Assembly (NCBI GenBank): GCA_001029735.1
Contig: CP011213.1
Location: forward strand, 396,613-460,612
Source: Berkelbacteria bacterium GW2011_GWE1_39_12
Lineage (GTDB): Bacteria; Patescibacteriota; UBA1384; UBA12157
Length of the DNA: 64,000 nt
Direction of reading: 5' to 3'
The notes beneath the pieces were generated by a model that saw only the letters and a list, made by a program, of their open reading frames with translations, was not told the origin of the DNA and made no database searches. The translations under genes and the position numbers were made by a program. Shown piece by piece: positions 11,964-30,830 of the stretch. Numbering within the stretch: the first letter of the stretch is position 1; the number at the start of each line of letters is the position of its first letter.

Positions 11964-12134
11964 AATCTATCTAGGATTATATATTATTTTGGCTGCCTGG
12001 TCAATCATGGTTGACTTCAATTATATTTTTATTTATAATCTGCTCAATTGGTGGCAATAGCGTCACCGACTCGGAAGGCTAATGGTGGCCCCGAGATTTT
12101 GCTCTAATAGCGGAGCAGAAGGATGGTTTAACAA

Positions 12135-12707
12135 ATGGGAAAAGCGACAGAAATGGATATTGTGGTTCAGCTTTTTGATAGGGTAAACAGTCATTTGATT
12201 GTCCCTAAAATCATGGATTTACGACGAGCTCTTAAGTTCTGTGATAAGGAAATTTCTCAGACCACTCTTGAGAAAATGATCGACAGTCTGATCTCAGAAA
12301 ATGTAATTTCTGGAAGAGATTTTGGTTTAGAGTTGAGGTCATACAGTATTCATGCTCATGCTGAGAATTCTGATCTGTGTGAAGATAAATTCGGACAACT
12401 TGTTAAGGCTTATGCCAAATGGCTTCATAGCCATACACAAGAATCTCATTCCGAAGAAACGTCTATGAAGCTCCTGATGTTGGCTATCTGGATTTACGAT
12501 CAGATTTCAAATGATGATGCTGGCATGGTGAATGAAATTCTGCGTAATCTTGTACCTAAACTTCATAGGACTGCTGTTGATCAAGTCTATCTAGATCTGA
12601 CAAAAAAGAATCATCCCGCGGCAGTTCCAATCGCCGAGGGTCTGGTGAAACTTATAGGCGTCAATAATTTGTTGACATCTCATTATGAGAAGAACTGTCC
12701 GTGCTAG
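12135..12707 (+). CDS. hypothetical protein (island gene)
   Basis: A 190-aa ORF with no recognisable domain. Confidence 0.35.
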   Translation: MGKATEMDIVVQLFDRVNSHLIVPKIMDLRRALKFCDKEISQTTLEKMIDSLISENVISGRDFGLELRSYSIHAHAENSDLCEDKFGQLVKAYAKWLHSHTQESHSEETSMKLLMLAIWIYDQISNDDAGMVNEILRNLVPKLHRTAVDQVYLDLTKKNHPAAVPIAEGLVKLIGVNNLLTSHYEKNCPC

Positions 12708-12741
12708 TGAATATCCCGCATCGAACTTTGTTGCGGGATTT

Positions 12742-13509
12742 TTAAATCTCTTCTTTCGATACCTTCCAAAGCTGTTCGAACCAGTTGCGCATGGATGTCG
12801 CGTATTCTTTGGAAGTGATAACAGTACCGAAGGACTCTTGGCTAGTGGTTATAATGGCGACATTGTCCTGATAGATCACAATATGAGCTGGACAGTCAAA
12901 ATCTTTGGGTGCAAATCTGTAAGTTCGGAAATCTTTTGGTTTAGGTTTGTTTATCTCGCCTTCTACTTCCCATTCCTTAACTCTAATTGAGCGAGATGGT
13001 ATTTTTTTATTTATGCGTTTTTCGATCCATTTTCTTAAATATTCTTCGCCGAAAACATCAGATATAGTGTTGGTATTGGCAACATACCAAATATTGTCTT
13101 TTTTTTCGTCAATTTCGAGCATTTCTTCGTAAATTAGCTTTATATCCTCACCTTTAAAGAAACGAACGTTGGGTTGGAAAGGCGAAATTTTATATTGCCG
13201 ATCGAGTTCTGGCAGATTCTTTTTTAATTCATCAATACTTTCATCGATATTCGCTTTTTCATTATTTAAAAGTGTAATTACTGTTCTAATGGGACGGGCT
13301 TGATAGCTTCGTCGAGTTTGATTGTCATTAATATTAATCAAGTTTTTCTCTCTTAAGCGTTCCAAAATATAAAAAACCGTCGTTCGCGGTAATTTAAGCT
13401 TACTGGCAACCGGCACGATGTGCGACTCGCCTATCTCTAAAAGGGCGAGATAGGCCTCGATTTCCTTATCTGAAAGGTTAAGTTGTTTTAGATAATTTCT
13501 GATGTCCAC
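12742..13509 (-). CDS. TrmB-like winged-helix transcriptional regulator (paralog 3)
   Basis: N-terminal motif LKQLNLSDKEIEAYLALLEIGESHIVPVASKLKLPRTTVFYILERLREKNLI. Confidence 0.55.
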   Translation of the reverse strand: MDIRNYLKQLNLSDKEIEAYLALLEIGESHIVPVASKLKLPRTTVFYILERLREKNLININDNQTRRSYQARPIRTVITLLNNEKANIDESIDELKKNLPELDRQYKISPFQPNVRFFKGEDIKLIYEEMLEIDEKKDNIWYVANTNTISDVFGEEYLRKWIEKRINKKIPSRSIRVKEWEVEGEINKPKPKDFRTYRFAPKDFDCPAHIVIYQDNVAIITTSQESFGTVITSKEYATSMRNWFEQLWKVSKEEI

Positions 13510-13598
13510 AATACTCCTAAACGTCTAAATGATTCGTCGACACTTATACTATACCACTATCTTATTAACAAGTAAATAGATATATAACGTCTAAAAGA

Positions 13599-13633
13599 CT
13601 TGACATTTGGGCTCGGTTGTGATACAATATCAT
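13599..13633 (+). promoter_or_regulatory. sigma70-like promoter (TTGACA-18-TACAAT) for the small-protein array
   Basis: cttgacatttgggctcggttgtgatacaat, with a leader of about 140 nt containing the CCTGTTTAACAGG palindrome. Confidence 0.45.
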
Positions 13634-13776
13634 GTAAAGAAAATTAGTTAAACCAGTTAATCAGGTTCACCAGACAGCCGGCACCTTAACAATTTGTTCA
13701 ACCTTCTGCCTACCTGTTTAACAGGTTGGTAGAAGAGTTGGATATAAAAAACACCAGTTAAAGGAGAATAAATCAG

Positions 13777-14139
13777 ATGATTCAGATAATCAAGATTAAC
13801 AAGGATTATGGCATCGTATGTTTTCCAGGTGAGACTTTCGAGGATTTCTATGCAATCAATACCCGTTTGAGTGCCGAGGGTTTTGGTCAAGATAAACGAA
13901 CATCCTATTCGGATTTCGGCGCCATACGGAAATATTACAGTTTTAATCGATTTAGATTCCGACAGCTTCTCGAGACTAGTAACCTGAAATGGGCGTGCGC
14001 ATCGAGTTTAGATGCAATCTGGCACTGGCATGGCGATGGACCCTTATGTATAAATCGCTACAGCCACGAAATCGGTAACTTCGAGCACGGGGTTTATGAT
14101 AGCTTCGGTGATCATAATGGCTTTCTTGTCCGACTCTAG
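13777..14139 (+). CDS. small protein family member 1 (VVWFP...RLTAEGFG...GFLVRL family)
   Basis: A 120-aa ORF. It is paralogous to the two following ORFs, with a shared N-terminal motif and the C-terminus GFLVRL. Confidence 0.5.
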   Translation: MIQIIKINKDYGIVCFPGETFEDFYAINTRLSAEGFGQDKRTSYSDFGAIRKYYSFNRFRFRQLLETSNLKWACASSLDAIWHWHGDGPLCINRYSHEIGNFEHGVYDSFGDHNGFLVRL

Positions 14140-14258
14140 ATCTTTATGATCTTTCGCCCGCCGCTTTTATGGCGTCGGGCGCTTCCTTCTGGATATCTAT
14201 CTAGGTATTCAGAAGAGTTGAAAAAACATTTCACTTTCAGAAAAGGAGAAAAATTCAG

Positions 14259-14618
14259 ATGATGAACGCTGTTGAAATGCAAATTGGTGAAAAGAAATAT
14301 GCGGTCGTTTGGTTCCCCGATGAGAAGATCGAGAACTTCTTGGCTGCCGATGTACGTCTTACCGCAGAAGGTTTCGATCCCGAACAGCGGGTCGGAGAAG
14401 ACGAAGTGGATGACGATATCCTTGAATCAGAGTCGTTTTGGGAACATAGCAGCGAGATTCCAGACGTTGTTTCAGCCAGCAAAACTGAAGAATTCTGTGG
14501 TTTTGAATTCGTGCACGGAGTAGCGCTTCATTGCTTCCCATATTTGGAATCATTTAGGACTTTCAGTCCGTCCGAAATTTACGATAAGGCGGAAATTTGT
14601 TACATTGTCCGGTTCTAG
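14259..14618 (+). CDS. small protein family member 2
   Basis: A 119-aa ORF containing YAVVWFPDEKIENF..RLTAEGFD. It is preceded by the conserved leader CGGGCGCTTCCTTCTGGATATCTATCTAGGTATTCAGAAGAGTTGAAAAAA. Confidence 0.5.
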   Translation: MMNAVEMQIGEKKYAVVWFPDEKIENFLAADVRLTAEGFDPEQRVGEDEVDDDILESESFWEHSSEIPDVVSASKTEEFCGFEFVHGVALHCFPYLESFRTFSPSEIYDKAEICYIVRF

Positions 14619-14726
14619 ACCTTATGGTCTCTCGCCCGTTCCTTCGTGGCACGGGCGCTTCCTTCTGAATATCTATCTAGGTATTTAGAAGAGTTGAAAA
14701 AATACATCGTATAGGAGAGTGTTCAG

Positions 14727-15071
14727 ATGGAGATGATAAAGCTTAACGATCAGTACGCGGTAGTCTGGTTCCCTAGAGAGTCATTCTACACACTCAAGTG
14801 TGTTGTAGTACGCCTGACTGCTGAAGGCCTTGGGCTAGAACAACTTACAGCTGTACCAGATTTGAATATCCTTAGGTCGTATTCTGACGACATTTGGCAG
14901 AAGTACCAGAAAGGCGAAGCTCCGGCTTCAATTTTCGCCACTACTATGCAAGGTAAAAAACGCCCCTATTGCACACCCTTTGTAAATGTTCACCCACAAC
15001 GTCGCAGGGTAAATACAAACTGGCTGACGATGCGCTTCAATGATTGCTGCGGCTTTCTTGTCCGGCTTTAA
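14727..15071 (+). CDS. small protein family member 3
   Basis: A 114-aa ORF containing YAVVWFPRESF..RLTAEGLG...GFLVRL. The same leader is repeated at 14650-14700. Confidence 0.5.
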   Translation: MEMIKLNDQYAVVWFPRESFYTLKCVVVRLTAEGLGLEQLTAVPDLNILRSYSDDIWQKYQKGEAPASIFATTMQGKKRPYCTPFVNVHPQRRRVNTNWLTMRFNDCCGFLVRL

Positions 15072-15087
15072 GTCGGCACAAACTTTT

Positions 15088-15117
15088 CCCCAGGTTAAAA
15101 CCTGGGGATTTTTTTAT
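15088..15117 (+). terminator. rho-independent terminator
   Basis: Hairpin ccccaggttAAAacctgggg followed by ATTTTTTT. Confidence 0.65.
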
Positions 15118-15230
15118 CTCATAAAGAGGCTTGACTAAAATCCCTTTAACTGGGATAATAGGCTGTCTTAAGTGAAAGAGATAAAGGGGGTGGGGACATA
15201 AAACAGTGCGACTTTCCTGGTTGCGTAAAG

Positions 15231-15986
15231 ATGATCGACGAACGAGCCAAGATGTGTGTGGATCATCAGTTGCTTTTACGCGACTACGATGAATTAGATC
15301 GGAACTTTATTCTTGAACATCTCAGGGGTTGTCACTACAGAACGTTAGCTACCTTTCTCGGGAAATCTCGGCAAACTTTTTGGGAGTATATTACAGTTGG
15401 TCGTCTCAAGACGATCGAGCCGGGATCTTTCATCGTTAGACCTGATTCGATGCTTTGGGCAATTGACTTGGTAAGAAACTGGGTTTGTGTCGACCGCAAG
15501 TTGATGGCGCTTACCGAGTACAAGAAGTATGAAGCCTTTTTGAAACTTGTTCGTGATGAAAAGTTTGGCGAGACTCGAGAATATCTCAACGGCTCGCTTG
15601 CTATTCATAAATCTCAGATTTCACTGATTGCTGAGAGGTGTCGGAAGATTCGTCTTGCCAATTCAAATAACAATGGTATGACAACGAAGAAGTATTTGCG
15701 CAAAGGCGAGATGAGTCCGCCGATGGCAGCGAAGAAGCTGCGCTGTTTGGAGAAAGAGATTCGTCACTGGATGAAAACAGGAGATCTTAAGTACTCCAGG
15801 CGCGGAGAAGGCAATATCAAGTGGCATATTATCAGGCAAAACGATTTCTGGTTGTTTGTGAAACTTGTTGCTGACGGAACAAAGAAAGACGCCTCGACAG
15901 AATTTATCGATCAGTGCAGGCGTGCTTACAAAGATTATCAAATCAGCATTCCTAACGTCATAAAGATGGTTATGAAAAAGAGCTAG
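15231..15986 (+). CDS. hypothetical protein with C-terminal excisionase/MerR-like HTH
   Basis: A 251-aa ORF. The C-terminal segment MTTKKYLRKGEMSPPMAAKKLRCLEKEIRHWMKTGDLKYSRRGEGNIKW resembles the HTH_17 excisionase-type DNA-binding domain. Confidence 0.35.
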   Translation: MIDERAKMCVDHQLLLRDYDELDRNFILEHLRGCHYRTLATFLGKSRQTFWEYITVGRLKTIEPGSFIVRPDSMLWAIDLVRNWVCVDRKLMALTEYKKYEAFLKLVRDEKFGETREYLNGSLAIHKSQISLIAERCRKIRLANSNNNGMTTKKYLRKGEMSPPMAAKKLRCLEKEIRHWMKTGDLKYSRRGEGNIKWHIIRQNDFWLFVKLVADGTKKDASTEFIDQCRRAYKDYQISIPNVIKMVMKKS

Positions 15987-15987
15987 G

Positions 15988-16017
15988 CTCCGAATCAATA
16001 TGGTTCGGAGTTTTTTA
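15988..16017 (+). terminator. rho-independent terminator
   Basis: Hairpin ctccgaatcaatatggttcggag followed by TTTTTTATTT. Confidence 0.6.
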
Positions 16018-16034: not shown

Positions 16035-16316
16035 ATGATGGCAGCGATGGATCATATCAATAAACATTTCGACCACATACCCAAATATTTCAGGCTCCAA
16101 AAACCGCTGCAAGCGGCCGATGTTTGTGGTAAGGCGCGTGAACTAGCCGATGGTCAATACGACGTAATCTCATTCAATGACGGGCTTCTGACGCTTAGCA
16201 CTACGTCATCAGCTGCCGCTTCTAATTTAAGAATGAAAACTTTTGAAATACAAAATGAAATCAACGAAAAATTAGGCAAAGAACTCGTTAAAAAAGTGAG
16301 AATTAAGATACAATAG
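16035..16316 (+). CDS. DUF721/DciA-like protein (dnaA-recF neighbourhood protein)
   Basis: A 93-aa ORF with a motif resembling DUF721 proteins that normally follow recF. Here it is separated from recF by a 4.6-kb insertion. Confidence 0.45.
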   Translation: MMAAMDHINKHFDHIPKYFRLQKPLQAADVCGKARELADGQYDVISFNDGLLTLSTTSSAAASNLRMKTFEIQNEINEKLGKELVKKVRIKIQ

Positions 16317-16480: not shown

Positions 16481-16762
16481 TCAAACTCTTTTTTTATCTA
16501 TATACTTTAGTTCAAGCGCTAAATATAACATCGATCTTACTTCACCGCACGATCCTTTAGAAATATATAAAAACTTTTTAAACTCTTTATCTCCCATTCG
16601 TTCATAGCCTTCGGCAATATTATTCATAACAGAAACACTGGCCCTGTTAATTTGGTCTTTGAATGAATAGTCCTTAATACAGCTAAAATTTCTATAACTT
16701 AGTAATGTTAATTCTTTTGCTTTTTGCCAAGCAATTATATCTTCAAACTTTTCTATCTTCAT
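16481..16762 (-). CDS. four-helix-bundle protein (23S rRNA intervening-sequence protein family)
   Basis: A 93-aa ORF with IAEGYER...DKEFKKFLYISKGSCGEVRS, typical of the TIGR02436 family. Confidence 0.65.
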   Translation of the reverse strand: MKIEKFEDIIAWQKAKELTLLSYRNFSCIKDYSFKDQINRASVSVMNNIAEGYERMGDKEFKKFLYISKGSCGEVRSMLYLALELKYIDKKRV

Positions 16763-16809: not shown

Positions 16810-19320
16810 CTAATACGCCACGTGAACTTGAGCCCAAGATTCCGGCATAGCGAATAGGCCATAGTTTGCCGGCCTGGTTTTGCCGTATAAAGCATTTAAG
16901 ATTGAACTAAACGGTATGACGTCGCGTTCTTTTGAATATGTAATTAACTGCGTAACTCTATAGGTGCTGGTATTGCCTTTGTCGTAGGGAAATTTCAATA
17001 ACTCGGCAATGACTTGATGAACTTTTTTGCGTGCTTCTGGTTGATAAACCGAATAAAATACTCTCGGATCAGTTGAGGTTGATTCATCAGACTCGGCGCT
17101 TACATGTGTGACTGTTGGTTTGCTGTCTTGCCATGTGACTTTGATTGGAATAGCTTTTTTGCCGGCAGGCTGGCCCGGAAGGCCAGTACTGACGAGGCCA
17201 CCTTCACAGCGCAATCTTAACATTTCATTGTCACCGCCGAAGAAACCGCCAAAACCGCCAATATTTCCTAATAATCCATCACTTAAGCCAGCGAAATTAC
17301 TAAACTGGTCTAGGTTTAAATTATCTGTCAAAGCTCCTGTAACTTGATCAAATCCTGTGTTGATGCCGCCTAAATAATCATTAAGGCTATCCAGACCACC
17401 GATCTGAGAGATACTATCAAGATTGGTAAATTGTTCAAGCGCGGAATTAATGGTATCAATTTGCGCGTTTAGCCTATCAATATCACTGTTGATATTATCG
17501 ATGTTGCTTTGCAGGTCGGCAGTTATTTGATCCATCTTAGTTTGCAAATTAGTAATAACCGTTCCCACACCGGTAATTTGGATTAAGGAAGTATTTAATT
17601 TTTTGGTTAAGTCGTCGAGCTGTCGATTATATTCAGCCTTTTGTTCCGGAGTCAAAGAACTATTATTAACAGCTGTTCGAAAAGTCTCAATTTTTGGTTT
17701 CACTGTATCCATGTTTTGGGTATATTGATTGATTCTGTCACTGTCTTGCTGGAGAGTGTTTTGTAAATCACCTACATTATTTGTTGTGTCGTTAACTTCA
17801 TTCCTTTCATTTTGGCTTAAGGAATCAATGTTTATTTGATTCAATTGATTCAATAAATCTTGAGCTGATCCGCTTAGATCTGAAAACAGACCGCTTGTCG
17901 TGAAATCTCTGCCTGTCGGTGCTCCGTCTGCTCCCGAAACGTTATCTGGTAAGCCATCGGAGTAATAAACCACATCGTTCATTGGAGGAGTTCCGTTTGC
18001 ACCACTGCAAATATCTCTGTTTGGTTCTAATGATTTATAAACAAAATCGATTTCAGCGACATCTGAAGCCAATCCATCTTTATGTGCAGAAACATTGTTC
18101 GTTAGTTGAGAATCTCGTGCTGCTCCGGATTCCGGATCATTAGGCATATCTTTATACCCAGAAATGATATGGCTGGTGCCAATGCGAAGATGTCTATCTG
18201 ATAAATACTTTAGCGCTTGGAGTAGGCGGTAGTCTGCATTACCTTCATTAACATAGGTCTTGTCTTCACTATTTAAGTAATCAAATTTATGAAAACCAGC
18301 TGCATTAATTACGCCTGCCATACCGCCGGCAGCGGCAGAATTGATTTCTTTTATTTCCGATACATAAGTGCTTCCTGCAGTTGCCTTGGTTGGGTAGGTT
18401 TTTCCAAAATAACCGTTTTGAGCGCTACAGGCGAGACCAATAAAAATAAGCATTAGAACAATAAAAATAGCTAAACAGATAAGTAAAACTGGCCAGCCGA
18501 AAAAACCTACTACTGCGGCTAACGCCGCTTCTAAAGCTTCAGAGGTAGCAGTCAAAGCTGCTTTTGCCAACACTTTAGCTCCTTGTTGGATGCCTTGTTG
18601 AGCTGCTTTTTCCCCAACTTTTTCAGCTCCTTCTTTTACTAATTCGTCTTTAGCTTTGCTTTTGGCCGCGTCGCTTGCGCCAATATTAACTTTTTTATTT
18701 TGAAAATTTTCATCTAGTGATGGGCTGATATCACTCTTTCCTTCTACGGGACCTGGTTTTTCGCCTTCAGGGGTTTTTTCGCCCTCACCTTTTTCTTCGT
18801 TTTTCTCCGTATCTGGTTTTTCTTTATCTGATTCTTGTTCTTTCTTGTCTTCGGCTTCTTTTTCGTCTTTATCTTTATCTTCCTTTTTTTCCTCTTTTTT
18901 GCCGGTCTGATTTTCTCCTTGAGATTCTTCTTGTCCTTGATCAGTTTGTTCTTCTCCTGGGTAGCTAACCGTTGGTTTGTTGCCAGGTTGGGTTTCTTTT
19001 GTGTCGACCCCGCTACCTGTGCCAGTAGATCCTGTACCACTGCCGGATATTCCGGCGCTAGAAGTTCCTCCCCCGCCAGATTGGTTTTCAGGCTGGGTGT
19101 TTCCGTCACTGAATGATCTTTCAGACTTTTGCTGTGGGATTACAACAGGTTTGATATTTTTAACATCTTGTGCCGGCTGGCCTGCGTTTTCCTTTTTTGA
19201 ATCTTTAACCGGAGTCTTGTATTTATCTGAAGATTTTCCGGCAGAAGATTTGTATTTAGAACTGGTTTCTTGCTCTGTTGTTTTTTTAGTTTCTTTTTCT
19301 TCTGAAAATTTATATTTCAT
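16810..19320 (-). CDS. large membrane-anchored protein, putative T4SS-associated cell-wall hydrolase (PrgK-like architecture)
   Basis: An 836-aa protein with a K/E/G-rich disordered N-terminus of about 280 aa, a single TM helix and an SxHxxGxAxD motif (SAHKDGLASDV) reminiscent of M15 peptidases. Coiled-coil follows. It is the last gene of the VirB4 operon. Confidence 0.35.
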   Translation of the reverse strand: MKYKFSEEKETKKTTEQETSSKYKSSAGKSSDKYKTPVKDSKKENAGQPAQDVKNIKPVVIPQQKSERSFSDGNTQPENQSGGGGTSSAGISGSGTGSTGTGSGVDTKETQPGNKPTVSYPGEEQTDQGQEESQGENQTGKKEEKKEDKDKDEKEAEDKKEQESDKEKPDTEKNEEKGEGEKTPEGEKPGPVEGKSDISPSLDENFQNKKVNIGASDAAKSKAKDELVKEGAEKVGEKAAQQGIQQGAKVLAKAALTATSEALEAALAAVVGFFGWPVLLICLAIFIVLMLIFIGLACSAQNGYFGKTYPTKATAGSTYVSEIKEINSAAAGGMAGVINAAGFHKFDYLNSEDKTYVNEGNADYRLLQALKYLSDRHLRIGTSHIISGYKDMPNDPESGAARDSQLTNNVSAHKDGLASDVAEIDFVYKSLEPNRDICSGANGTPPMNDVVYYSDGLPDNVSGADGAPTGRDFTTSGLFSDLSGSAQDLLNQLNQINIDSLSQNERNEVNDTTNNVGDLQNTLQQDSDRINQYTQNMDTVKPKIETFRTAVNNSSLTPEQKAEYNRQLDDLTKKLNTSLIQITGVGTVITNLQTKMDQITADLQSNIDNINSDIDRLNAQIDTINSALEQFTNLDSISQIGGLDSLNDYLGGINTGFDQVTGALTDNLNLDQFSNFAGLSDGLLGNIGGFGGFFGGDNEMLRLRCEGGLVSTGLPGQPAGKKAIPIKVTWQDSKPTVTHVSAESDESTSTDPRVFYSVYQPEARKKVHQVIAELLKFPYDKGNTSTYRVTQLITYSKERDVIPFSSILNALYGKTRPANYGLFAMPESWAQVHVAY

Positions 19321-19354
19321 TTTTCCCTTAAAACGTGTCAGCTTTAATTAATCT

Positions 19355-20386
19355 CTACAAAACTTTTTTGTAAAGATTGTTACCCGAAGTAAAATATAGA
19401 GTTTTACTGTCAGATGTAACCATTAGATTTGTAGCTGAAATATCATCGCTGCTTCTTATCTTTAGTTTGGAAGGTTTGTTTGTATCTAAGTTAATGATTT
19501 GAAATAAATCGCTGTTTCCATATGGTCTTGACGCGGTATACACAGAGTTATTTTTTGCTGAATAAACCGCTTTATCAACACTAGAGGCTGGTAGTAGACC
19601 AGTTATTTTTTTAGATTTTGTGTCTAATAGGCTTAGTCCAGGATTTGCTGATTCGGAAGTTGTGCCATCTATCAAAAATTTGTTTGTAAGTATATTTGTT
19701 ATATCGCCTAAATAGTATTGATCGGCTATTTCAATTTGTTTTTTGGTTTCAGTAGACAATAAGTAAATAATTGCCTTAAATGTTTCGGAAGGAATATTGT
19801 AATAAACTAAATTTTTATTATCTGCCCAACCAATTTGAGCGTTTTCATATTCGATATCAGTTATAATTGATTCGCTGTTTCCATCTGGGTTAGACGTAGC
19901 AATCCAGTCTGCATCGTCTAAATTCCAGTCAAGGTAATGATAGGCAATTTTCTTACTATCAGGAGACCAGCTTACGTTCAATATATTATCACTTAGCTTT
20001 TTTACCTCTTGTTTAGTATCTAAATTAATAAGAAATGTATGATGATCCGCTGCATTCGAAGGATTTTCTGTTTTAATCAGTGCCATTGATAAGTCAGGGG
20101 AATAAATAATATTGTTCGTATCTTTAAATGAAAGCTTCACTATTGTTTCAATCGAGTTTTTTTTAAGATCCCATTTTTTTATCGAGTTACTGGTATTACT
20201 GTAATAGTAAATAGATTGATTGTCCTGTAATAATTTGGGAAAAAAAACTTTTTCATTATTAGGATTATTTATAAGTGCCACCTTGTTTACGTTATTGCGC
20301 CAAATAGTTAAAATAATCGCTGCTATAAGCAATGCAATTAAAATAATTCCTATGATGATATAAGATTTATTAATCTTTGTTGGCAT
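19355..20386 (-). CDS. membrane-anchored beta-propeller protein with PD40/TolB-like repeats
   Basis: A 343-aa protein with an N-terminal TM helix and repeated YSPD/WSPDSKKIAYHY motifs. Confidence 0.45.
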   Translation of the reverse strand: MPTKINKSYIIIGIILIALLIAAIILTIWRNNVNKVALINNPNNEKVFFPKLLQDNQSIYYYSNTSNSIKKWDLKKNSIETIVKLSFKDTNNIIYSPDLSMALIKTENPSNAADHHTFLINLDTKQEVKKLSDNILNVSWSPDSKKIAYHYLDWNLDDADWIATSNPDGNSESIITDIEYENAQIGWADNKNLVYYNIPSETFKAIIYLLSTETKKQIEIADQYYLGDITNILTNKFLIDGTTSESANPGLSLLDTKSKKITGLLPASSVDKAVYSAKNNSVYTASRPYGNSDLFQIINLDTNKPSKLKIRSSDDISATNLMVTSDSKTLYFTSGNNLYKKVL

Positions 20387-20419
20387 AATGACTCCTGTTA
20401 ATATTATAACGGTTGGTGT

Positions 20420-21121
20420 TTATGTTTCTGTAGAGCTAGCACAATCCCGTGTTGGTCGGTATAAACCATAAAATCTACTGCCACGGCCGCCGCCAAAGAC
20501 ATTGTAAGTGCTGACATGAGGACCTCCGCCGGAACCACCTGATTCATAAATTATTTGTTTGGTGCCGCTTTCTCCTCCGAATAATACAATATGGGAAAAA
20601 GGTGTTTTTTTGGCAGGCCCAGAGGCACTTCCCATACCAAACAGTAAAAAATCACCTGGTTGCCATAGTGTTTTGGCTTGTGCTTGTGTTGTAGCTATCC
20701 TTTGGAAACTACTTGAGGAAGCAAAAGAAACAGTATACAAACAAGTGTTCATTGGAAGTAGTCCAGCATCGCGATAAACACGACTTGCATATCCTGTGCA
20801 ATCCATATAAGTGACACCCGCTGCTCCTTTACTATTTGCGGGACCACACCTTCCCCCTTCCTGACTGTATCTAATTCCCTTATTCAAATATGTGCGGGCA
20901 GCAGTGATAACATCGCTGCATCCACCAGCGACAATCGGTGCATCAGTTTCTTCTGACGAACCGCCCGGGCTCGATGAGCCTGATCCGCTGCCAGTTCTAT
21001 CACCTATCATTGCTGCCGCTGTTACCATCATAATAATCAAAATAAACGCCATAGCGACAACCGCTATTAAAATCCAAACAACTCCGCGGTCATAATGAAT
21101 TTTAAGTTTTATTTTATTCAT
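20420..21121 (-). CDS. CHAP/NlpC-P60-type peptidoglycan hydrolase
   Basis: A 233-aa protein with an N-terminal TM helix, the Cys motif YMDCTGYASRVY and His in SHIVLFGG, typical of CHAP amidase/peptidase. VirB1-like role in a T4SS context. Confidence 0.55.
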   Translation of the reverse strand: MNKIKLKIHYDRGVVWILIAVVAMAFILIIMMVTAAAMIGDRTGSGSGSSSPGGSSEETDAPIVAGGCSDVITAARTYLNKGIRYSQEGGRCGPANSKGAAGVTYMDCTGYASRVYRDAGLLPMNTCLYTVSFASSSSFQRIATTQAQAKTLWQPGDFLLFGMGSASGPAKKTPFSHIVLFGGESGTKQIIYESGGSGGGPHVSTYNVFGGGRGSRFYGLYRPTRDCASSTET

Positions 21122-21130
21122 ATAAATAAT

Positions 21131-23230
21131 CTAAACACCTGGTGTCTGAAGTTGGCCGGTTTGACCGTTTGCTTCGTCTTCTTCCTTTTCTTCAGTATTC
21201 TTCTTGGTTTGCATTTCCATTAATTGTTTTGGATCAGTTGTAATCATCTGATCCTCCGTATAAGAAGCGATAACCTTGATGGCAACATGATTTAGGCCGG
21301 CAAAAAATAGTCCTTCTCCAACCTCGCACTCAAGCAGTAAAAATTTTTCGCCTTCAGTTAAGCCGAAAACTTGAGCGATTTTTTCAACTGAAGACGGGGA
21401 CTGCTTCATAAGAAGCTGCATGGAAGAGTTATTAATAACTGATCGGCCATACTTTGAATCCAAAAAGTCTTCTACATCTTGTGAAATAATGGTTAAACCA
21501 AGGTAATATTTACGTCCACGTTTGGCTAAGGCATAAAGGAATTTACCGGAATCTTCGTATTGCATCATCCACCAAGCCTCATCAATAACTAGCATTCGTC
21601 GGCGAATGTTGAAACGCACTCTTTGCCAGATATAATTCAAAATCATATACATACCGATTGGGCGAAGAGCGTCTTCAAGATCACGAACTGAAAAGACAAT
21701 AAAACCGTTATCCAAGTCAAAGTTAGTCGGTTGATCAAATAAACCCTTAAAAGTACCTTCGGTATATTTCGAAAGCTTTTTGACCATACTTTCAGTTCCT
21801 GTCATATTTTGTAAAACTTGTTGAAGATCGGAAAGTAGTGGTGGCTGGTTACTGTGTGTAGCAGGATCGACAGTAATGTCTTTTAAGGCATATACTTCAT
21901 ATAAAGCCTTTTCCAAGACTGCGTCTTCTTCCGGTGTAACACCACTCATCATTAAAGACAATAACCCTGAAAGCATTGTGATATTAGAGCGCAGAATGTC
22001 CTCGCCGTTACCTTCAGAAGCGGCGCTTTTACCGGCTTTTGGTAAATCAAACGGATTGATGCGTTTATCGGAGTTCAGGGCAATGTTTAAATAGTTACCG
22101 CCAACTGCCTCACAAAGGTTTTTATACTCATTTTCAGGATCAATTACAATTGCGTCTGAGCCGAGCATTAAATATCTTAAGATCTCGAGCTTAATAGCGT
22201 AAGATTTTCCCGAACCGGATTTTGCAAAAACAACTGAGTTAGCATTTTCCAAATTAAATCTATCAAATAATATTAAAGAGTTATTATGACGATTTAGGCC
22301 ATAAAGAATTCCCTCGTTACTGGAAAGTGTTGTAGAAGTAAACGGAAAAGTCGTGGAAAGAGAAGCGGTATCTAAGTTGCGTAAGATTTTGAGTTCATCG
22401 ATAGCCATCGGTACGGTTGAAGTAAAGGTGTAAATTAGCATTCCGCCCAAAGTCGATTCCAGCTGTTCAGTAATGGTATTTAATTCCTCTTCATTTTTAC
22501 CGTAAATGGTAAAGTATAAGCCAAATTGAAAAATACGCATTTCTCCTCGTTGCAAGGTATTTCTGAGTTCTTCGATATTCTGTATTGCCGTCTCTAGTTC
22601 TGGGTTTCGCACCAAGCCTTTTTCTTGTTCAATGGCAAGTGAAGATTGGAGCTGGCCGGCTTTCTTGCGTAGTTGAGTCATCATTTCTTTGGAACCGATC
22701 GGATGAATAAACATGGAAATATCTAAAGTAATATCATAGTTAATGATCGGTGCTAGCCAGTTAGTCTGAACATAACTTGGGTATGTGAAGACAAAGAGTG
22801 TTCGTGCCAGCATGTTTCCCAGTCGGATATAGTTTGGTTTAACCTCTAGCGCTGCCGGTGCAATAATATCTAATACCGAAGTCATGCCTTGTTGATAAGT
22901 TTGCTGAGGGATTGCCATTTGCATAACTCCTGTCTGTGGAATGGCTACCGGTCTGCCAGCCGCGGCCATTTGATTGGTGGCTGCATAGTTATTATTCACC
23001 GGGATTGGTCTAGGTGGCATTTGATTTGCAACAGGAGGCCTATTGGCCATAGCAGGACTCGCCGTCATTGGTTCAGGTTGAATTACCTGGTTAGACTGCT
23101 GATTGTTTTGTGCCGCCCCGGGCGTTCTTGGCAGCAATTGATCCATCATGTTTTGGGCAGGATTAATTTGAGTTGCTCCGTTTGGCACAGCTTGTTGGTT
23201 AGCCCCTGGTTGTACGTTTGTTTTGTTCAC
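21131..23230 (-). CDS. virB4: VirB4/TrbE-family conjugation ATPase (Gram-positive type) with Q/N/P-rich N-terminal extension
   Basis: A 699-aa protein with Walker A FAKSGSGKSY and Walker B LVIDEAWW, plus a VirB4 N-domain (YIRLGNMLARTLFVFTYPSYV). The first ~130 aa are low-complexity Q/N/P. Confidence 0.85.
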   Translation of the reverse strand: MNKTNVQPGANQQAVPNGATQINPAQNMMDQLLPRTPGAAQNNQQSNQVIQPEPMTASPAMANRPPVANQMPPRPIPVNNNYAATNQMAAAGRPVAIPQTGVMQMAIPQQTYQQGMTSVLDIIAPAALEVKPNYIRLGNMLARTLFVFTYPSYVQTNWLAPIINYDITLDISMFIHPIGSKEMMTQLRKKAGQLQSSLAIEQEKGLVRNPELETAIQNIEELRNTLQRGEMRIFQFGLYFTIYGKNEEELNTITEQLESTLGGMLIYTFTSTVPMAIDELKILRNLDTASLSTTFPFTSTTLSSNEGILYGLNRHNNSLILFDRFNLENANSVVFAKSGSGKSYAIKLEILRYLMLGSDAIVIDPENEYKNLCEAVGGNYLNIALNSDKRINPFDLPKAGKSAASEGNGEDILRSNITMLSGLLSLMMSGVTPEEDAVLEKALYEVYALKDITVDPATHSNQPPLLSDLQQVLQNMTGTESMVKKLSKYTEGTFKGLFDQPTNFDLDNGFIVFSVRDLEDALRPIGMYMILNYIWQRVRFNIRRRMLVIDEAWWMMQYEDSGKFLYALAKRGRKYYLGLTIISQDVEDFLDSKYGRSVINNSSMQLLMKQSPSSVEKIAQVFGLTEGEKFLLLECEVGEGLFFAGLNHVAIKVIASYTEDQMITTDPKQLMEMQTKKNTEEKEEDEANGQTGQLQTPGV

Positions 23231-23937
23231 TATTTTGCCTCTCCTGATTTTGCGGCTTCTTCTGGATTTAAGACTGCACTTTCAACGACTTGTGAAGTAA
23301 GATTATCAATCTGAGTGAGTTTTTCTTTACTTGATTCCTCGGGATTATATATTCCGTAAAGCAATTCAATAATTTGTTGGCTGCCTAATTGAGCACAGCG
23401 GATACCGATTGAACCGAGGCCACTTTCAATCACTTGAATCCTTTGAACCAGTTCTTGTTTGTAAGTTTCAAATTCTTGCATTGTGATTTTGGGGGTTTCA
23501 TTCTTAGCGGCGCTCTGACTCATTTTTGGTGGCGCAGCAAAAGAGATACAGACATAAAATTTCTTATCCATAATATTGGCTATATTAATCAGGCGCCCGA
23601 CAAAATCGATATAATCTAAGGTTTGCACTCTAAGTAATTCATTAGTTTGAACTTGCCCAATTTTCTTTAAAGAAGCAAGATAATTGGAAAGATCAAGTTT
23701 TTTTGATTGCATCATTATTTGAATCGGAAATTCTAAAGAGTTCAAGAAATTTTGATATGCAAAAATAATAGCCGTTTGTTCTTGCTCGGACTTTAAGGCA
23801 AAGTTGATTGAACTTACCATTAAAATCGCCCGAAGTTCTCCGGTTTTGGTGATGATGATTCCGTCATGAATTTCTGCAAATTTCAGAATTTCTTGAGTGC
23901 TACTTACCTGCGGTTGGGGGTTGCCCCATATTCCCAA
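23230..23937 (-). CDS. hypothetical T4SS-associated protein (weak resemblance to a VirB4 N-terminal domain)
   Basis: A 235-aa protein translationally coupled to virB4 (ATGA overlap). It contains DGIIITKTGELRAILMVSSINF. Confidence 0.3.
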   Translation of the reverse strand: MGIWGNPQPQVSSTQEILKFAEIHDGIIITKTGELRAILMVSSINFALKSEQEQTAIIFAYQNFLNSLEFPIQIMMQSKKLDLSNYLASLKKIGQVQTNELLRVQTLDYIDFVGRLINIANIMDKKFYVCISFAAPPKMSQSAAKNETPKITMQEFETYKQELVQRIQVIESGLGSIGIRCAQLGSQQIIELLYGIYNPEESSKEKLTQIDNLTSQVVESAVLNPEEAAKSGEAK

Positions 23938-24484
23938 CTTGTCCTCCTTGACCCTGGCCCTGTCTCGGCGCCTGGGTTTTTTGTTCTCCCATTCCTTGTT
24001 GAATCAATTTCTCGAAATTATTAGTAATTCTGCCAAAATTTTGCTGCTCTTGCTTGCCCAATGGCCCTGTATCTAAAGTATGCGCTAATTTTTCTAAATC
24101 ACTTTTCTCAATTTTTTTAGGCTGAACATATACTTCGCTTCTGACTTTTTTTGGTGGCTCAATTAAAACTGTTGATCTAAATCCGACTTTTCGCCAGAAT
24201 CTTGTCTTTGGATGAGTGTAGTAGTAAATGCCGGCTTTTATAAAATGCGATAATGGCTGATCTTGGATTTTAACGAAGGCCATGCCAAGACTTACGATGC
24301 TAATCGGTAAGGCTAAAATAACAAAGATTCCAGTACTTTTGGTGCCGATTGATTGAAATAAAATATAGACAATCAAGCCGCCGCCCAACAGGTAAAGAAA
24401 TTGCACTAAAGTGAGCGGTCCGACAATCTTGTCTTCGAGATCGATATTTTGCGGAACTTTAAATTGCAAGACCCCTCCATACAC
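23900..24484 (-). CDS. PrgI/VirB3-like small membrane protein
   Basis: A 194-aa protein. The N-terminus MYGGVLQFKVPQNIDLEDKIVGPLTLVQFLYLLGGGLIVYIL matches the PrgI family pattern with two TM helices. First gene of the operon. Confidence 0.45.
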   Translation of the reverse strand: MYGGVLQFKVPQNIDLEDKIVGPLTLVQFLYLLGGGLIVYILFQSIGTKSTGIFVILALPISIVSLGMAFVKIQDQPLSHFIKAGIYYYTHPKTRFWRKVGFRSTVLIEPPKKVRSEVYVQPKKIEKSDLEKLAHTLDTGPLGKQEQQNFGRITNNFEKLIQQGMGEQKTQAPRQGQGQGGQVGNMGQPPTAGK

Positions 24485-24571
24485 TTAAACCAAACGGAAA
24501 ATAAAATTCCGTCACTTTTATAATATCACAATTTCAAAATGTGTGTAGAGGCAAAAAATATGTAACTATAT

Positions 24572-25003: not shown

Positions 25004-25027
25004 AACCGGATTTAGATCCGGTTTTTT
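25004..25027 (+). terminator. rho-independent terminator
   Basis: Hairpin aaccggatttagatccggtt followed by TTTTTT. Confidence 0.6.
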
Positions 25028-25030
25028 AGT

Positions 25031-25064
25031 AAAAAAAACCGCTCTTATTTATTTTGAAGAGCGG
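25031..25064 (-). terminator. rho-independent terminator of the atp operon
   Basis: Minus-strand hairpin ccgctcttcaaaataaataagagcgg followed by TTTTTTTT. Confidence 0.6.
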
Positions 25065-25212: not shown

Positions 25213-25641
25213 CTAACGATGCTTTCTTTGTCTATTAGCTATCTTTAAGTGTAACAATGCCTTCTCCAGAGCTGCAGAGGCTTCCGCAACTTCTATATCA
25301 TCTTCGGCGTTTTCGAGTTTTTGCTTGGCTTTATTCTTCGCTTCTTCAGCGGCAATTTCGTCAATACGCTCGGAACGAACGGCGCTATCGGACAGCACTT
25401 TAACCACATCGTTATTAATTTCCACAAAACCACCCATTGAAGCCAGGTGAATTTCTTCCGATTCGCCCTTTTCCGCCAGTTGGCGGATTATTATTTCGCC
25501 GGGCGAAAGAATTGTAACCAGCGGTTCATGTCCGGCCAAAATGCCAATTTCCCCATTTAAAGTCGGTAACAAAACTTCGTGAGCTTTGCCCTCATAAATG
25601 GTTTCTTCTGGAGTGATTAATTTAAAGTCAAATAGTTTCAT
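25213..25641 (-). CDS. atpC: F0F1 ATP synthase subunit epsilon
   Basis: MKLFDFKLITPEETIYEG... is a typical epsilon N-terminus. The ORF track's start at 25656 lies inside a palindromic element. Confidence 0.8.
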   Translation of the reverse strand: MKLFDFKLITPEETIYEGKAHEVLLPTLNGEIGILAGHEPLVTILSPGEIIIRQLAEKGESEEIHLASMGGFVEINNDVVKVLSDSAVRSERIDEIAAEEAKNKAKQKLENAEDDIEVAEASAALEKALLHLKIANRQRKHR

Positions 25642-25651
25642 AATGTAAATT

Positions 25652-25717
25652 GTCATTCCGGACTTGATCCGGAATCTATTCTAGATCCTGAATCCTGCAA
25701 TGGCCGGTTCAGGATGA
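25652..25717. repeat. palindromic element family B (GTCATTCCGGA...TCCGGAATCTAT...TTCAGGATGAC)
   Basis: A 66-bp element in the atpD-atpC intergenic region. Confidence 0.6.
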
Positions 25718-25728
25718 CATTGTAAATG

Positions 25729-28006
<2,278 letters not shown>

Positions 28007-28035
28007 TTGTATCTTTCTGTAATTATAACTCTTTT

Positions 28036-28103
28036 GTCTTTCCGGACCGGTTGGTAAACAGGATCCGGAATCTATCATATGGATCCTGAATCATGTTCAG
28101 GAC
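28036..28103. repeat. palindromic element family B copy, between a duplicated atpG 5' end and the real atpG start
   Basis: gtctttccggaccggttggtaaacaggatccggaatctatcatatggatcctgaatcatgttcaggac. A second MPNTKEI-coding segment lies at 28098-28118 (minus). Confidence 0.55.
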
Positions 28104-28140
28104 TTCGATTTCTTTTGTATTTGGCATTGATTTTCTTGGT

Positions 28141-28209
28141 GTCATCCCGAGCTTGCCGAGGGATCTAGATTCGAGATTCCTCCACTCGCTATTGCTCGGT
28201 CGGAATGAC
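28141..28209. repeat. palindromic element (GTCATCCCGAG...CGGAATGAC)
   Basis: A 69-bp element with terminal inverted repeats in the atpA-atpG intergenic region. Confidence 0.55.
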
Positions 28210-28281
28210 ATTTACTCTTGACTACTTGGTTGACTTGTGATAACATTTATTCGAATTTGGATATCAAGCAGGAGGAAGAAA

Positions 28282-28539
28282 ATGATAGTTGTTCTGAATA
28301 TTGTGAAGTATCTTTCGTTCTTGATCACAGGGCTTTGTGCAATAGCGGGCGTAATGTTTATTGCAACTGCGCCACTCACTCTTGGTGTGTCAGTTCATAT
28401 AGCTAACATTGCCAAGGCCATTTGCATTATCTTTGTCTCTTCGCTGGCTCTGGCTTTCCTCTCAAGCAATCTGATTGACTGGTTACAGAGAAGATATCGG
28501 ATGAACAACGGCCAGATTCAAATTATGGTTCAACGCTAG
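28282..28539 (+). CDS. hypothetical small membrane protein embedded antisense within the atp operon
   Basis: An 85-aa ORF with two predicted TM helices and RBS aggaggaagaaaATG. It is flanked by palindromic elements. Confidence 0.3.
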   Translation: MIVVLNIVKYLSFLITGLCAIAGVMFIATAPLTLGVSVHIANIAKAICIIFVSSLALAFLSSNLIDWLQRRYRMNNGQIQIMVQR

Positions 28540-28597
28540 GATTCATTAGCGCTTGAAGTTTCTACTTCCGGCGCTTTTTTAAATTGCCAAAACTTTT

Positions 28598-28674
28598 GTC
28601 ATTCCGGAAAGAAAGGGTTTCTTATCCGGAATCTATTGGATCCCGGATACTGTTTGCTAACCGGTCCGGGATGA
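28598..28674. repeat. palindromic element family B copy
   Basis: gtcattccggaaagaaagggtttcttatccggaatctattggatcccggatactgtttgctaaccggtccgggatgac. Confidence 0.6.
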
Positions 28675-28677
28675 CAG

Positions 28678-30207
28678 CTATGCTTTGTCTATTCCCTTGG
28701 TATTTTCTTTTAAAAACGCTGTCAACTTCTCTTCACACTTTTCATCAATTACTCCTGAATCAGAAATACTTTTTAAAACATCGGCGATTTCGCCCTTGGC
28801 TTTAGTCGATAAAGTCTTTTCTAAAGCGCTGATTTCGGAAACTTCATAACTATCAAAATATCCATTCGTAACGGCATATAAAGTAATAACCTGTTCGGCA
28901 ACTGGAATCGGTTGGTTGTTCACTTGTTTTAAGACTTCGGTAATTCTGCGGCCTCGTTCTATCTGGCGCTTAGTATCTGCATCCAAATCAGATGAAAACT
29001 GAGCAAAAGCTTCCAGTTCTCTGAACTGTGCCATTTCCAACTTCAATTTACCGGCAATCTTTTTCATGGCTTTGATCTGAGCGGCGCCGCCGACACGGGA
29101 AACGGAAAGGCCGGCGTTTAAAGCAGGGCGAATACCTTTGTAAAACAAATCGTTCTCTAAAAATATCTGACCATCGGTAATAGAAATAACGTTGGTTGGA
29201 ATATAAGCGGAAATGTCCCCTGCCTGGGTTTCAATAATCGGAAGAGCGGTAAGTGAACCGCCGCCATTCTCTTTATTTAATTTGGCTGCGCGTTCTAATA
29301 GGCGAGAGTGTAAATAGAAAATATCGCCTGGGTAAGCTTCGCGGCCTGGCGGGCGACGGAGCAGCAAAGAAATCTGTCTATAAGCCCATGCATGCTTACT
29401 TAAATCATCGTAAACGATCAATGCGTCCCGACCATTGTCGCGGAAAAATTCGCCCAAACTAGCGCCCGCGTAGGGTGCCAAATAGGCAAATGAGGCTGGA
29501 TCGGAAGCGCCGGCTAAAACGACAATTGAGTTATCCATCGCTCCAGTTTCTTCAAGTGTATTGATTAATTTAGCGACCTTAGATTCTTTCTGACCGATGG
29601 CAACATAAATGCTAATGACTGGATCTTTGCCTTCTTCTTTGGCAATTTTGGTTTGATTAATAATCGCATCGATAGCAATCGATGTCTTTCCCGTGCCACG
29701 GTCGCCAATAATGAGTTCTCTTTGGCCACGGCCAATTGGCACAATGGAATCGATGGCTTTAATACCAGTTTGCAAAGGCGTATTGACGCCTTCTCGGGTA
29801 ATAACGCCGGGGGCAATCTTTTCAATTGGCGCCATAAGATCAGTTTTTATCTCACCCTTACCATCGAGTGGTTGGCCTAAAGGATTTACCACGCGACCGA
29901 TCATGGCTTCACCGACTGGGATTTCCAAAATCTTACCAGTAGATTTAACTGTTGAACCGGCAATGATTTTTTCAGTTTCGCCTAGTACAATAGCGCCGAC
30001 AGTGTCGCGCTCAAGGTTTAAGATCACACCGAAGACGTCTGTTCCTTCGAACTCAATCATTTCCATGGACTTGGCTTGGCTTAGACCATAGATTTTGGCC
30101 ACACCGTCGCCGATTTCAGTGACAACGCCGGTTTGTTCCAAACTCTGCTCATCGGAAAGATTTTCGATTTTCTTTTTGATTTCTTCTAAAATTAAGTCGG
30201 TATTCAT
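28678..30207 (-). CDS. atpA: F0F1 ATP synthase subunit alpha
   Basis: Walker [12 protein letters not shown] and a conserved alpha subunit sequence. Confidence 0.95.
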
Positions 30208-30321
30208 TTTACTCCTAGTTTATAAAGTCAAAAGTCCTTAAAGTCTGTAAAGTACATGGAAACTTTTGATAGTAAAACACCTCGTACTTTAAAAACTTTA
30301 TAGACTTTATGACTATTTAAG

Positions 30322-30819: not shown

Positions 30820-30830
30820 AATTTGGTTTT

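Follow-up and report, generated by a model that had tools for sequence, protein, structure and literature searches.

A type IV secretion locus beside the replication origin genes

The window analysed here is a 64-kb stretch of the ~915-kb genome of Berkelbacteria bacterium GW2011_GWE1_39_12, and all coordinates below are window positions. On its minus strand, six co-directional and tightly packed genes (16810-24484) form one operon-like block, whose products point to the core of a type IV secretion system (T4SS) with a VirB4 ATPase. A sequence-only reading of the DNA had proposed these six packed or overlapping open reading frames (ORFs), and we found all of them at the coordinates it gave. 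They are listed from the first gene to the last (lengths in amino acids, aa), followed by the origin genes beside which the block lies:

23900-24484, minus strand: PrgI/VirB3-like small membrane protein, 194 aa from a GTG start (Pfam PF12666, above its gathering score)
23230-23937, minus strand: TrsD-like protein, 235 aa, with a TTG start after AAGGAGG (NF041427 TrsD/TraD)
21131-23230, minus strand: VirB4 ATPase, C-terminal two-thirds, 699 aa (NF045971 and PF19044)
20420-21121, minus strand: putative membrane-anchored NlpC/P60-type cysteine peptidase, 233 aa (weak NLPC_P60 matches and invariant residues)
19355-20386, minus strand: membrane-anchored PD40/TolB-like beta-propeller, 343 aa, with a transmembrane (TM) segment at residues 3-34 (PD40)
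16810-19320, minus strand: bitopic membrane protein, 836 aa, final gene of the block (unnamed T4SS-linked family)
7420-11420, plus strand: dnaA, dnaN and a recF-like gene, the origin context (Pfam)

The PrgI and TrsD genes overlap by 38 nt and the TrsD and VirB4 genes by 1 nt (TAGTG), after which the genes are separated by gaps of 9, 33 and 34 nt. The locus is chromosomal, lies beside the oriC genes, has an ordinary base composition and is without an integrase. GC content in the block (0.38-0.41) is similar to that of the remaining window, dnaA itself (7420-8811) lies 8 kb from the operon end, and the only tRNA gene in the window, a tRNA-Ser at 492-581, is 16 kb from the block. On the side of the block facing recF lie a four-helix-bundle gene, dciA and a variable 4.6-kb stretch; on the other side is a complete F1Fo ATP synthase operon (25213-32610).

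Relatives were drawn from the contigs of homologues of the 836-aa protein and from a VirB4 scan of 185,579 species genomes, and 85 related loci (cited below by locus number) were compared. The scan returned 587 VirB4 relatives; the best 80 are almost all labelled Candidate Phyla Radiation (CPR)/Patescibacteria, with a few metagenome-assembled genomes (MAGs) labelled Gammaproteobacteria, Planctomycetota or Woesearchaeota. The comparison showed gene order to be conserved in related genomes. In the closest lineages, PrgI comes first and is followed by TraC-like/TrsD, VirB4, the hydrolase and the propeller; next, in some cases after one gene on the opposite strand, come the 836-aa family, dciA, recF, dnaN and dnaA. 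The neighbours dnaA, dnaN and recF recur in L001, L004 and L005, and DnaA lies at most 10 kb away in 27 loci.

PrgI and a divided VirB4

The PrgI-like assignment, the unambiguous VirB4 with Walker A and B motifs and the PD40 propeller of the sequence-only reading were all borne out by profile scores above the respective cut-offs. PrgI matches PF12666 with E=1.6e-9 (38.6 bits against a cut-off of 27) and has two hydrophobic helices within residues 20-74. A TTG at 24469, preceded by GGAGG, may be its true start in place of the GTG. A PrgI homologue lies immediately upstream of TrsD/VirB4 in 64 of the 85 related loci.

The 699-aa VirB4 ORF matches NF045971, the CD1110 family, over profile positions 182-733 (E=1.9e-98; 330.6 bits against a cut-off of 325) and PF19044 (P-loop_TraG) with E=6.5e-29, and is 75-80% identical to its counterparts in L001 and L002. 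Its main features are:

22202-22225, minus strand: Walker A, AKSGSGKS, residues 336-343 (translation)
21578-21595, minus strand: Walker B, MLVIDE, residues 546-551 (translation)
22895-23230, minus strand: Q/N/P/A-rich low-complexity head of the VirB4 ORF, residues 1-112 (composition)

The ORF upstream of it had been described as an accessory protein. It aligns to positions 2-176 of the VirB4 CD1110 profile and to positions 102-289 of a mycoplasma VirB4 profile, and matches NF041427 (TrsD/TraD) at 6.5e-8, below the curated cut-off of 200 bits for that family. Because this ORF covers profile positions 2-176 and the ATPase ORF positions 182-733, the supposed accessory protein is the detached N-terminal domain of VirB4; the ORF itself stands, and its generic label gives way to a TrsD-like one. 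Counterparts in relatives carry the annotation PF26593 (TraC-like), and the ORF was found in 67 of the 85 related loci, nearly always separate from VirB4. The two ORFs each have their own Shine-Dalgarno sequence. A frameshift or pseudogene at the boundary was considered and rejected because the split is conserved across related loci, so that the division of VirB4 is genuine and not a sequencing error.

The N-terminal extension of VirB4 noted in the sequence-only reading is indeed Q/N/P-rich (59% Q/N/P/A over residues 1-112), and its length is closer to 110 aa than to the 130 aa first estimated. The MN(K/Q) start is conserved and the length of the head varies, from ~110 aa in the window to ~60 aa in L001 and ~20 aa in L002; the head is a length-variable linker at the TrsD/VirB4 split.

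Other variation was seen in the same genes. Near residue 268, the window VirB4 is without a 10-residue stretch, KQTLLQMEQG, that both L001 and L002 carry. In L016, TrsD and VirB4 are fused in one ORF. The Peregrinibacteria, Peribacteria and Gracilibacteria loci (L018-L039) have longer VirB4 ORFs (2.2-3.0 kb), and phmmer found no separate TrsD or PrgI homologue in them.

A swapped wall hydrolase and a beta-propeller downstream of VirB4

The 233-aa protein encoded directly after VirB4 comprises a TM segment (residues 10-43), a G/S linker and an NlpC/P60-type core, in which C108 (in a D-C-T/S-G-Y context), H177 and E193 are invariant and of catalytic type. Its earlier naming as a CHAP hydrolase did not hold: CHAP (PF05257) gave no match at E<=5 in any of five family members, whereas all five weakly matched NLPC_P60 (PF00877), at best with 1e-4 and with E=0.029 for the window protein. 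The p60 endopeptidase model NF010495 matched at 9e-4, UniRef gives the name 'NlpC/P60 dom...', and a PDB sequence search with this protein returned nothing. Compared by hhalign, the protein shares a homologous domain with its counterpart in L006 (probability 99.6%), and no catalytic-domain homology with the CHAP enzyme of L001.

In every relative examined, the position after VirB4 is filled by a recognised hydrolase: CHAP with glucosaminidase in L001 and L005, NlpC/P60 in L006 as in the window, SLT_2 with Peptidase_M15_4 (M15_4) in L002, and VanY in L004. The peptidase occupies the VirB1 (wall-opening) slot, which is swapped among unrelated enzymes. This is the pattern that would be expected of VirB1-type wall opening, where any muralytic activity suffices.

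The propeller matches PD40 with 26.1 bits (cut-off 20.9), summed over weak repeats. PD40 was found in 9 of 15 homologues (best 2.4e-8), together with other propeller families, and PEGA in four. Homologues of the propeller lie downstream of VirB4 in 13 loci.

An unnamed family with a coiled-coil insertion of variable length

The last gene of the block encodes a protein with the following parts:

18625-19320, minus strand: disordered K/E/S/G-rich N-terminal region, residues 1-232 (composition; model confidence, pLDDT, <35)
18406-18537, minus strand: TM segment, residues 262-305 (Kyte-Doolittle maximum 3.43; helix in models)
17956-18405, minus strand: ectodomain N-part, residues 306-455 (invariant columns)
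17227-17955, minus strand: coiled-coil insertion, residues 456-698 (at a beta-hairpin turn; not in shorter homologues)
16813-17226, minus strand: ectodomain C-part, residues 699-836 (invariant columns)

The N-terminal region is not alignable among homologues and is probably cytoplasmic, as lysines before the TM helix would indicate under the positive-inside rule. No Pfam domain was found in any family member searched, the window protein included. NCBI and UniRef name the protein 'Plexin repeat family protein', a name that no search here backs.

A first full-length search recovered eight relatives. In a second search, with a profile from which residues 471-694 had been spliced out, shorter homologues were found (P0015-P0023, 293-551 aa) in which the two halves of the ectodomain are contiguous, and the coiled coil is therefore a lineage-specific insertion. 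In an exhaustive HMMER census of 1.84 billion representatives, the family comprised 63 cluster representatives at E<=1e-30, a number that rose to 83 at E<=1e-10. Many members are 800-2045 aa long; in these, the N-part lies close to the N-terminus and the C-part at the very C-terminal end. Between the first motif and the C-terminus there are 103 to 1623 residues. The family closes the block in L001, L002, L004, L005 and L006, whose counterparts in L009, L011-L013, L016 and L017 are giant versions encoded 3' of VirB4.

AlphaFold2 on the full 836-aa protein (8 sequences) gave a pLDDT of 44 and was unusable. The homologue P0020 (399 aa, 18-sequence alignment) was modelled with a pLDDT of 81.5, and above 90 in the ectodomain. 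The insertion point falls in the turn between P0020 strands E241-247 and E253-262. The insertion itself (~240 aa) gave coiled-coil matches alone in PDB and Pfam, and long helices appear at residues 475-694 in the 836-aa model. Invariant residues C438 and C705 of the window protein flank the insertion point and may form a disulfide.

The remaining invariant residues fall into two groups. In the N-part they are S383, Y389, S411, H413, G416, A418 and D420, which make up an S-x-H-x-x-G-x-A-x-D motif (with H-x6-D) preceded by an S-x-Y element. In the C-part they are H739, H768, E827, W829 and H833, within a strictly C-terminal ...ESWxxxH-h-G/A-Y. Across 95 representatives the C-terminus reads H-h-[GAS]-[YFW], and two residues before the His of this motif stands H in 30, N in 24 and Q in 22.

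The signature of LAS metallopeptidases is H-x6-D plus HxH (MEROPS M15/M23, hedgehog). The 836-aa family resembles these enzymes (M15 VanY, VanX and DD-carboxypeptidase, the hedgehog N-domain, M23 lysostaphin) in having H-x6-D (H413-x6-D420) and then, late and in the right order, (H/Q/N)-x-H, with E827, W829 and H833 invariant and a full HxH in the 30 representatives just mentioned. The regular expression S.H..G.A.D occurs in 17 of 10,595 locus ORFs, of which 12 belong to the 836-aa family and five are hydrolase ORFs adjoining VirB4; four of these five are in genes with a Pfam M15_4 or VanY match. One distant family member matches Peptidase_M15_2 over the motif region (E=0.0054).

Several results weigh against a LAS-like ectodomain. 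Unlike in LAS metallopeptidases, the motifs of the family lie 180 to more than 1600 residues apart, and no profile or fold match was obtained: Pfam gave no M15 match in eight family members at E<=5; PDB searches with the N-part, the 18-sequence alignment and compact members gave nothing or insignificant low-complexity matches (E>=0.11); and hhalign against the Pfam-annotated M15 hydrolases of related loci gave probabilities of 1.7-2.4%, with the motif region alone aligned. A PDB profile search with the full-length 836-aa alignment yielded coiled-coil noise alone, and Foldseek with the confident P0020 model found no match in PDB or BFVD. In addition, the window clade has Q in place of the first His of HxH.

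On balance, we lean slightly towards a LAS-like ectodomain, and its catalytic activity is less certain than the LAS-like reading. The sequence-only reading had counted two cell-wall hydrolase candidates in the cluster; the first stands as an NlpC/P60-like enzyme with a weak profile match, and what points to M15 in the giant protein is its motifs alone, with no profile match behind them. In L007, a 460-aa protein in the hydrolase slot (9942-11321) has SPHWCGNAMD and a near-C-terminal HEDHVHIGF, ~80 residues apart, and could represent a compact intermediate that connects ordinary M15 enzymes with the split-motif family.

A wider proposal for this protein is speculative, and we regard it as rather doubtful in full. 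It would be an uncharacterised T4SS-linked family, confined to the lineages with VirB4 nearest that of the window (MAGs labelled Berkelbacteria, Saccharibacteria or Patescibacteria), whose membrane-anchored, LAS-like ectodomain is split at a disulfide-flanked beta-hairpin by a coiled-coil insertion of 0 to >1000 residues. The insertion could then act as a length-tunable spike, carrying or positioning a module that cuts or binds the wall on the way across to the host cell, and so serve as the contact or host-range determinant of the epibiont's secretion machine.

A VirB6-like sub-cluster and components sought in the window

The system extends beyond the coordinates given in the sequence-only reading, to a VirB6-like gene farther along the window, 17 kb upstream of the core and past the ATP synthase operon. 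With its neighbours (39853-44998, minus strand; 143-, 928-, 275- and 368-aa proteins) it makes up a putative second T4SS sub-cluster:

44567-44998, minus strand: 143-aa Cys-rich protein whose N-terminus resembles a signal peptide; the gene overlaps the 5' end of the VirB6-like gene
41787-44573, minus strand: putative VirB6-like 'extended' channel subunit, 928 aa (weak TrbL/VirB6 match; homologue context)
39853-41787, minus strand: two co-directional ORFs, 275 and 368 aa, directly 3' of the VirB6-like gene

The 928-aa protein has about six hydrophobic helices in residues 1-290, followed by a hydrophilic tail of ~630 aa. Among 20 homologues, TrbL was the sole recurring Pfam family (4 of 20, best 5e-5), and in 30 loci a homologue is encoded on the PrgI strand, 2-6 kb upstream of PrgI. 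Here and in the nearest relatives, the VirB6-like gene has become detached from the core. The 143-aa protein, with no Pfam match and no homologues in related loci, is a possible T4SS accessory and is not pilin-like. For the 275-aa and 368-aa ORFs, we found no significant Pfam match and no homologues in related loci.

Relaxases and coupling proteins (T4CP) were sought in ~50 of the 92 window ORFs of at least 90 aa, 47 of them with Pfam and three against PDB sequences. The scanned set includes every long ORF not inside a longer annotated one; the remaining ORFs are shorter than 200 aa, and therefore too small for a T4CP or relaxase. Among the tested ORFs of the 64 kb we found neither a relaxase nor a coupling protein or integrase, in agreement with the sequence-only reading, which had seen neither relaxase nor coupling protein in the window. 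Relatives L002 and L003 bear pilin arrays a few kb away, and 38 pilin-like ORFs were found in related loci; phmmer and jackhmmer searches with the L003 pilins found no VirB2-like pilin (PF18895) in the window. Three small tandem ORFs at 13.8-15.1 kb, weighed as VirB2 candidates, were rejected, being without hydrophobic helices or pilin similarity. No NTF2/VirB8-like gene was recognised in the window.

Relation to known systems and likely function

A Gram-positive-like T4SS in Saccharibacteria was reportedly described by McLean in 2020. In these bacteria, such a T4SS has been found at the chromosome start, without recognisable relaxase or coupling proteins (Wang 2023, PMC10633639). In Southlakia epibionticum, the corresponding genes (SEML1_0004-0019, beside dnaA, dnaN and recF) are essential for epibiotic growth by transposon sequencing, and include a lysozyme/cysteine-peptidase protein right after virB4 and an essential 1113-aa protein with a Hedgehog/DD-peptidase domain directly 3' of virB4 (PMC10633639). 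A survey of 3,035 Patescibacteria genomes placed their VirB4 in a monophyletic, vertically inherited clade nested in MPF-FATA, with TrsD as the most abundant partner, PrgI/VirB3 and VirB6 nearby, a position close to dnaA, and relaxases in ~100 of ~3000 genomes (Quiñonero-Coronel 2025, PMC12102498). A 2025 review gives the same picture (PMC12857230).

Given these matches, the locus is an instance of the described system, which ultra-small CPR bacteria have in their chromosomes beside the replication origin. It shares with the S. epibionticum and other Patescibacteria T4SS the order PrgI, TrsD-like and VirB4, the position beside dnaA, dnaN and recF, wall hydrolases and a large protein with LAS/DD-peptidase features directly 3' of virB4, a putative extended VirB6-like protein, and no relaxase or T4CP nearby. 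In contrast to them, the VirB6-like gene of the window lies 17 kb off with the ATP synthase operon between, the window has neither a VirB2-like pilin array nor a recognised NTF2/VirB8-like gene, the wall is probably cut by a small enzyme of NlpC/P60 type, a PD40 propeller replaces or accompanies the PEGA-type exported protein, and the LAS-like motifs are split by a coiled coil instead of forming a contiguous C-terminal DD-peptidase domain. The survey text (PMC12102498) makes no mention of a propeller, PD40, NlpC or Berkelbacteria, and its supplements do not list the Berkelbacteria GW2011_GWE1_39_12 genome. Within the literature searched, the accessory set and the split-motif family appear uncharacterised so far.

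Likeness to the MPF-FATA systems (pGO1/pSK41 Trs, pCF10 Prg, Clostridioides difficile CTn2 CD1110) is found in the VirB4 body, which passes the CD1110 equivalog cut-off, in the PrgI/VirB3 homologue, in the division into TrsD and a TrsE-like VirB4 as in pGO1, in the membrane-anchored wall hydrolase (compare PrgK, TraG and TrsG) and in the absence of outer-membrane core components. The window differs from them in being without a relaxase, T4CP, oriT or PrgB-type adhesin, in that the locus is conserved and chromosomal and not a mobile element, and in having a propeller and an 836-aa family for which those systems offer no counterpart.

We put the probability at roughly 80% that the block is the core operon of a Patescibacteria-clade, MPF-FATA-related T4SS beside oriC, which most likely serves contact-dependent host interaction and not plasmid conjugation. 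With no relaxase, coupling protein or integrase nearby, such interaction with a host bacterium is the most likely role. The sequence-only reading had likewise suggested a role other than plasmid conjugation in a reduced-genome organism, and the chromosomal position, the conserved order and the literature agree with it (PMC10633639, PMC12102498, PMC12857230). The function is most likely the one transferred here from the genetics of the Saccharibacterium S. epibionticum. Some points tell against this reading: the organism from which the function is transferred belongs to a different class, Saccharimonadia; VirD4-like genes are common in Patescibacteria and are distant from virB4 (PMC12102498), and a T4CP, relaxase, VirB8-like protein or pilin array may lie elsewhere in the ~915-kb genome; the TrbL/VirB6 match of the 928-aa protein is sub-threshold (E=0.18, profile positions 25-207 of 215); and all NlpC/P60 matches of the 233-aa peptidase family fall below the Pfam gathering score.

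Among the alternatives, the one that survives best is that the peptidase, propeller and 836-aa genes are ordinary wall-remodelling or division genes that happen to follow virB4. None of the three has a recognised T4SS-specific domain, the hydrolase is interchangeable in relatives, and propellers and LAS-like proteins are common in envelopes. We nevertheless think this improbable: the genes lie on the same strand with intergenic gaps of 9-34 nt, and their relative order after virB4 is kept in L001, L002, L004, L005 and L006, three of which have an extra gene on the opposite strand in between. Homologues of the propeller follow virB4 in 13 loci and those of the 836-aa protein in at least 11, and the analogous SEML1_0004-0007 are essential along with the T4SS genes (PMC10633639).

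Somewhat less probable again is a DNA-import machine like archaeal Ced or Helicobacter ComB, which would feed a nucleotide-auxotrophic cell or serve competence. The similarity of VirB4 to CedB (1e-11) and CedD (8e-4) is weak, and the CedB score lies far under those of the conjugative-type families. The group to which the organism belongs is without nucleotide synthesis (PMC10633639), and ABY1-class T4SS loci lie beside comF, recG and radA (PMC12102498); in the window, however, no com or rec genes are adjacent. In S. epibionticum, competence requires both ComEC and type IV pili, and cells survive when comEC is mutated, yet the T4SS is still essential (PMC12857230).

An integrated conjugative element or its decayed remnant, mobile-element baggage with the relaxase and coupling protein outside the window or lost, is very improbable. 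In its favour, the best VirB4 family matches are conjugative (CD1110/CTn2, mycoplasma integrated conjugative element, TraC), PrgI and TrsD are plasmid-derived families, and close by (11.4-16.0 kb) is a variable insert of 4.6 kb that encodes an HTH_17-like protein. Against it, the gene order beside dnaA, dnaN, recF and dciA is repeated in divergent relatives, the window ORFs tested include no integrase, relaxase or T4CP, a distance of 16 kb separates the block from the only tRNA, GC content is typical, and the Patescibacteria VirB4 clade is monophyletic and vertically inherited with few relaxases (PMC12102498).

As a contact-dependent T4SS, the locus would work as follows. PrgI/VirB3 would sit in the membrane via its two helices and form a channel together with the VirB6-like protein. 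VirB4 would be made as two translationally coupled polypeptides, the TrsD-like N-domain and an ATPase body with a disordered Q/N/P linker, which would assemble as the energising ATPase at the channel. The peptidase, the propeller and the 836-aa protein would be three membrane-anchored, outward-facing proteins: the NlpC/P60 peptidase would cut peptidoglycan for passage through the wall, in a VirB1 role; the TolB-like propeller would probably be a scaffold or binding module on the wall or periplasm side; and the 836-aa ectodomain would probably be a derived LAS-type zinc peptidase-like domain with an antiparallel coiled-coil spike rising from its hairpin. On host contact, the T4SS would serve protein export or the assembly of a surface structure or pilus.

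The T4SS of Patescibacteria was the first for which a need in the survival of its bearer was shown. At the locus studied here, the fixed parts are PrgI, the split VirB4, the propeller and the LAS-like anchored protein, whereas the wall hydrolase, the pilins and the location of VirB6 can be exchanged or moved. With its hypervariable coiled-coil insertion, the unnamed family offers a concrete candidate for a host-contact component. The system itself has already been described, and what is modestly new is the T4SS-linked unnamed family with this insertion; the locus also gives clean evidence of a swapped hydrolase slot and a relocated VirB6-like gene.

Other features of the window

A promoter-like site lies 5' of the first gene of the block:

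24520-24549, minus strand: promoter-like site (TACACA/TCTACA, TG, TATTAT), ~35 nt 5' of the first gene, a consensus match alone

The count of such weak sigma-70-like sites in the region is not above shuffled expectation. Neither this site nor a hairpin at 25004-25041, a possible terminator of the preceding atpC, is statistically compelling.

At the other end of the block, a four-helix-bundle protein (TIGR02436) is encoded at 16481-16762 on the minus strand, 47 nt 3' of the 836-aa gene and on the same strand. It is followed by a dciA-like gene on the opposite strand (16035-16316, plus), a neighbour of the operon that is conserved in relatives. Between recF and dciA, the variable insert of ~4.6 kb (11460-16000) has a slightly higher GC content (0.44) and contains a TrmB regulator, three small paralogues and a 251-aa protein with a weak HTH_17 match; in relative L005, dciA comes immediately after recF. 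The three paralogues are tandem small ORFs (13777-15071, plus strand; 120, 119 and 114 aa) with 25-31% identity, which share an N-terminal Y.VV.FP.E...RL.AEG and a C-terminal F(L/I)VR(L/F) and have no Pfam match. Four TrmB-family regulators occur in the 64 kb, three on the minus strand (3286-4083, 5382-6152 and 12742-13509) and one on the plus strand (56154-56882).

The left flank of the origin genes holds tRNA-Ser, jag/khpB, yidC and rnpA; farther along the window, on the far side of the block, are leuS, tsaD, plsX, femAB, a Mur ligase gene, fabH and holA. Several successive large ORFs without a Pfam family (34492-39657), located after the ATP synthase region and before the VirB6-like sub-cluster, encode proteins of 515 aa (acidic), 120 aa, 673 aa and 319 aa, the last with a signal peptide, a TM segment and an A/R/E-rich repeat.

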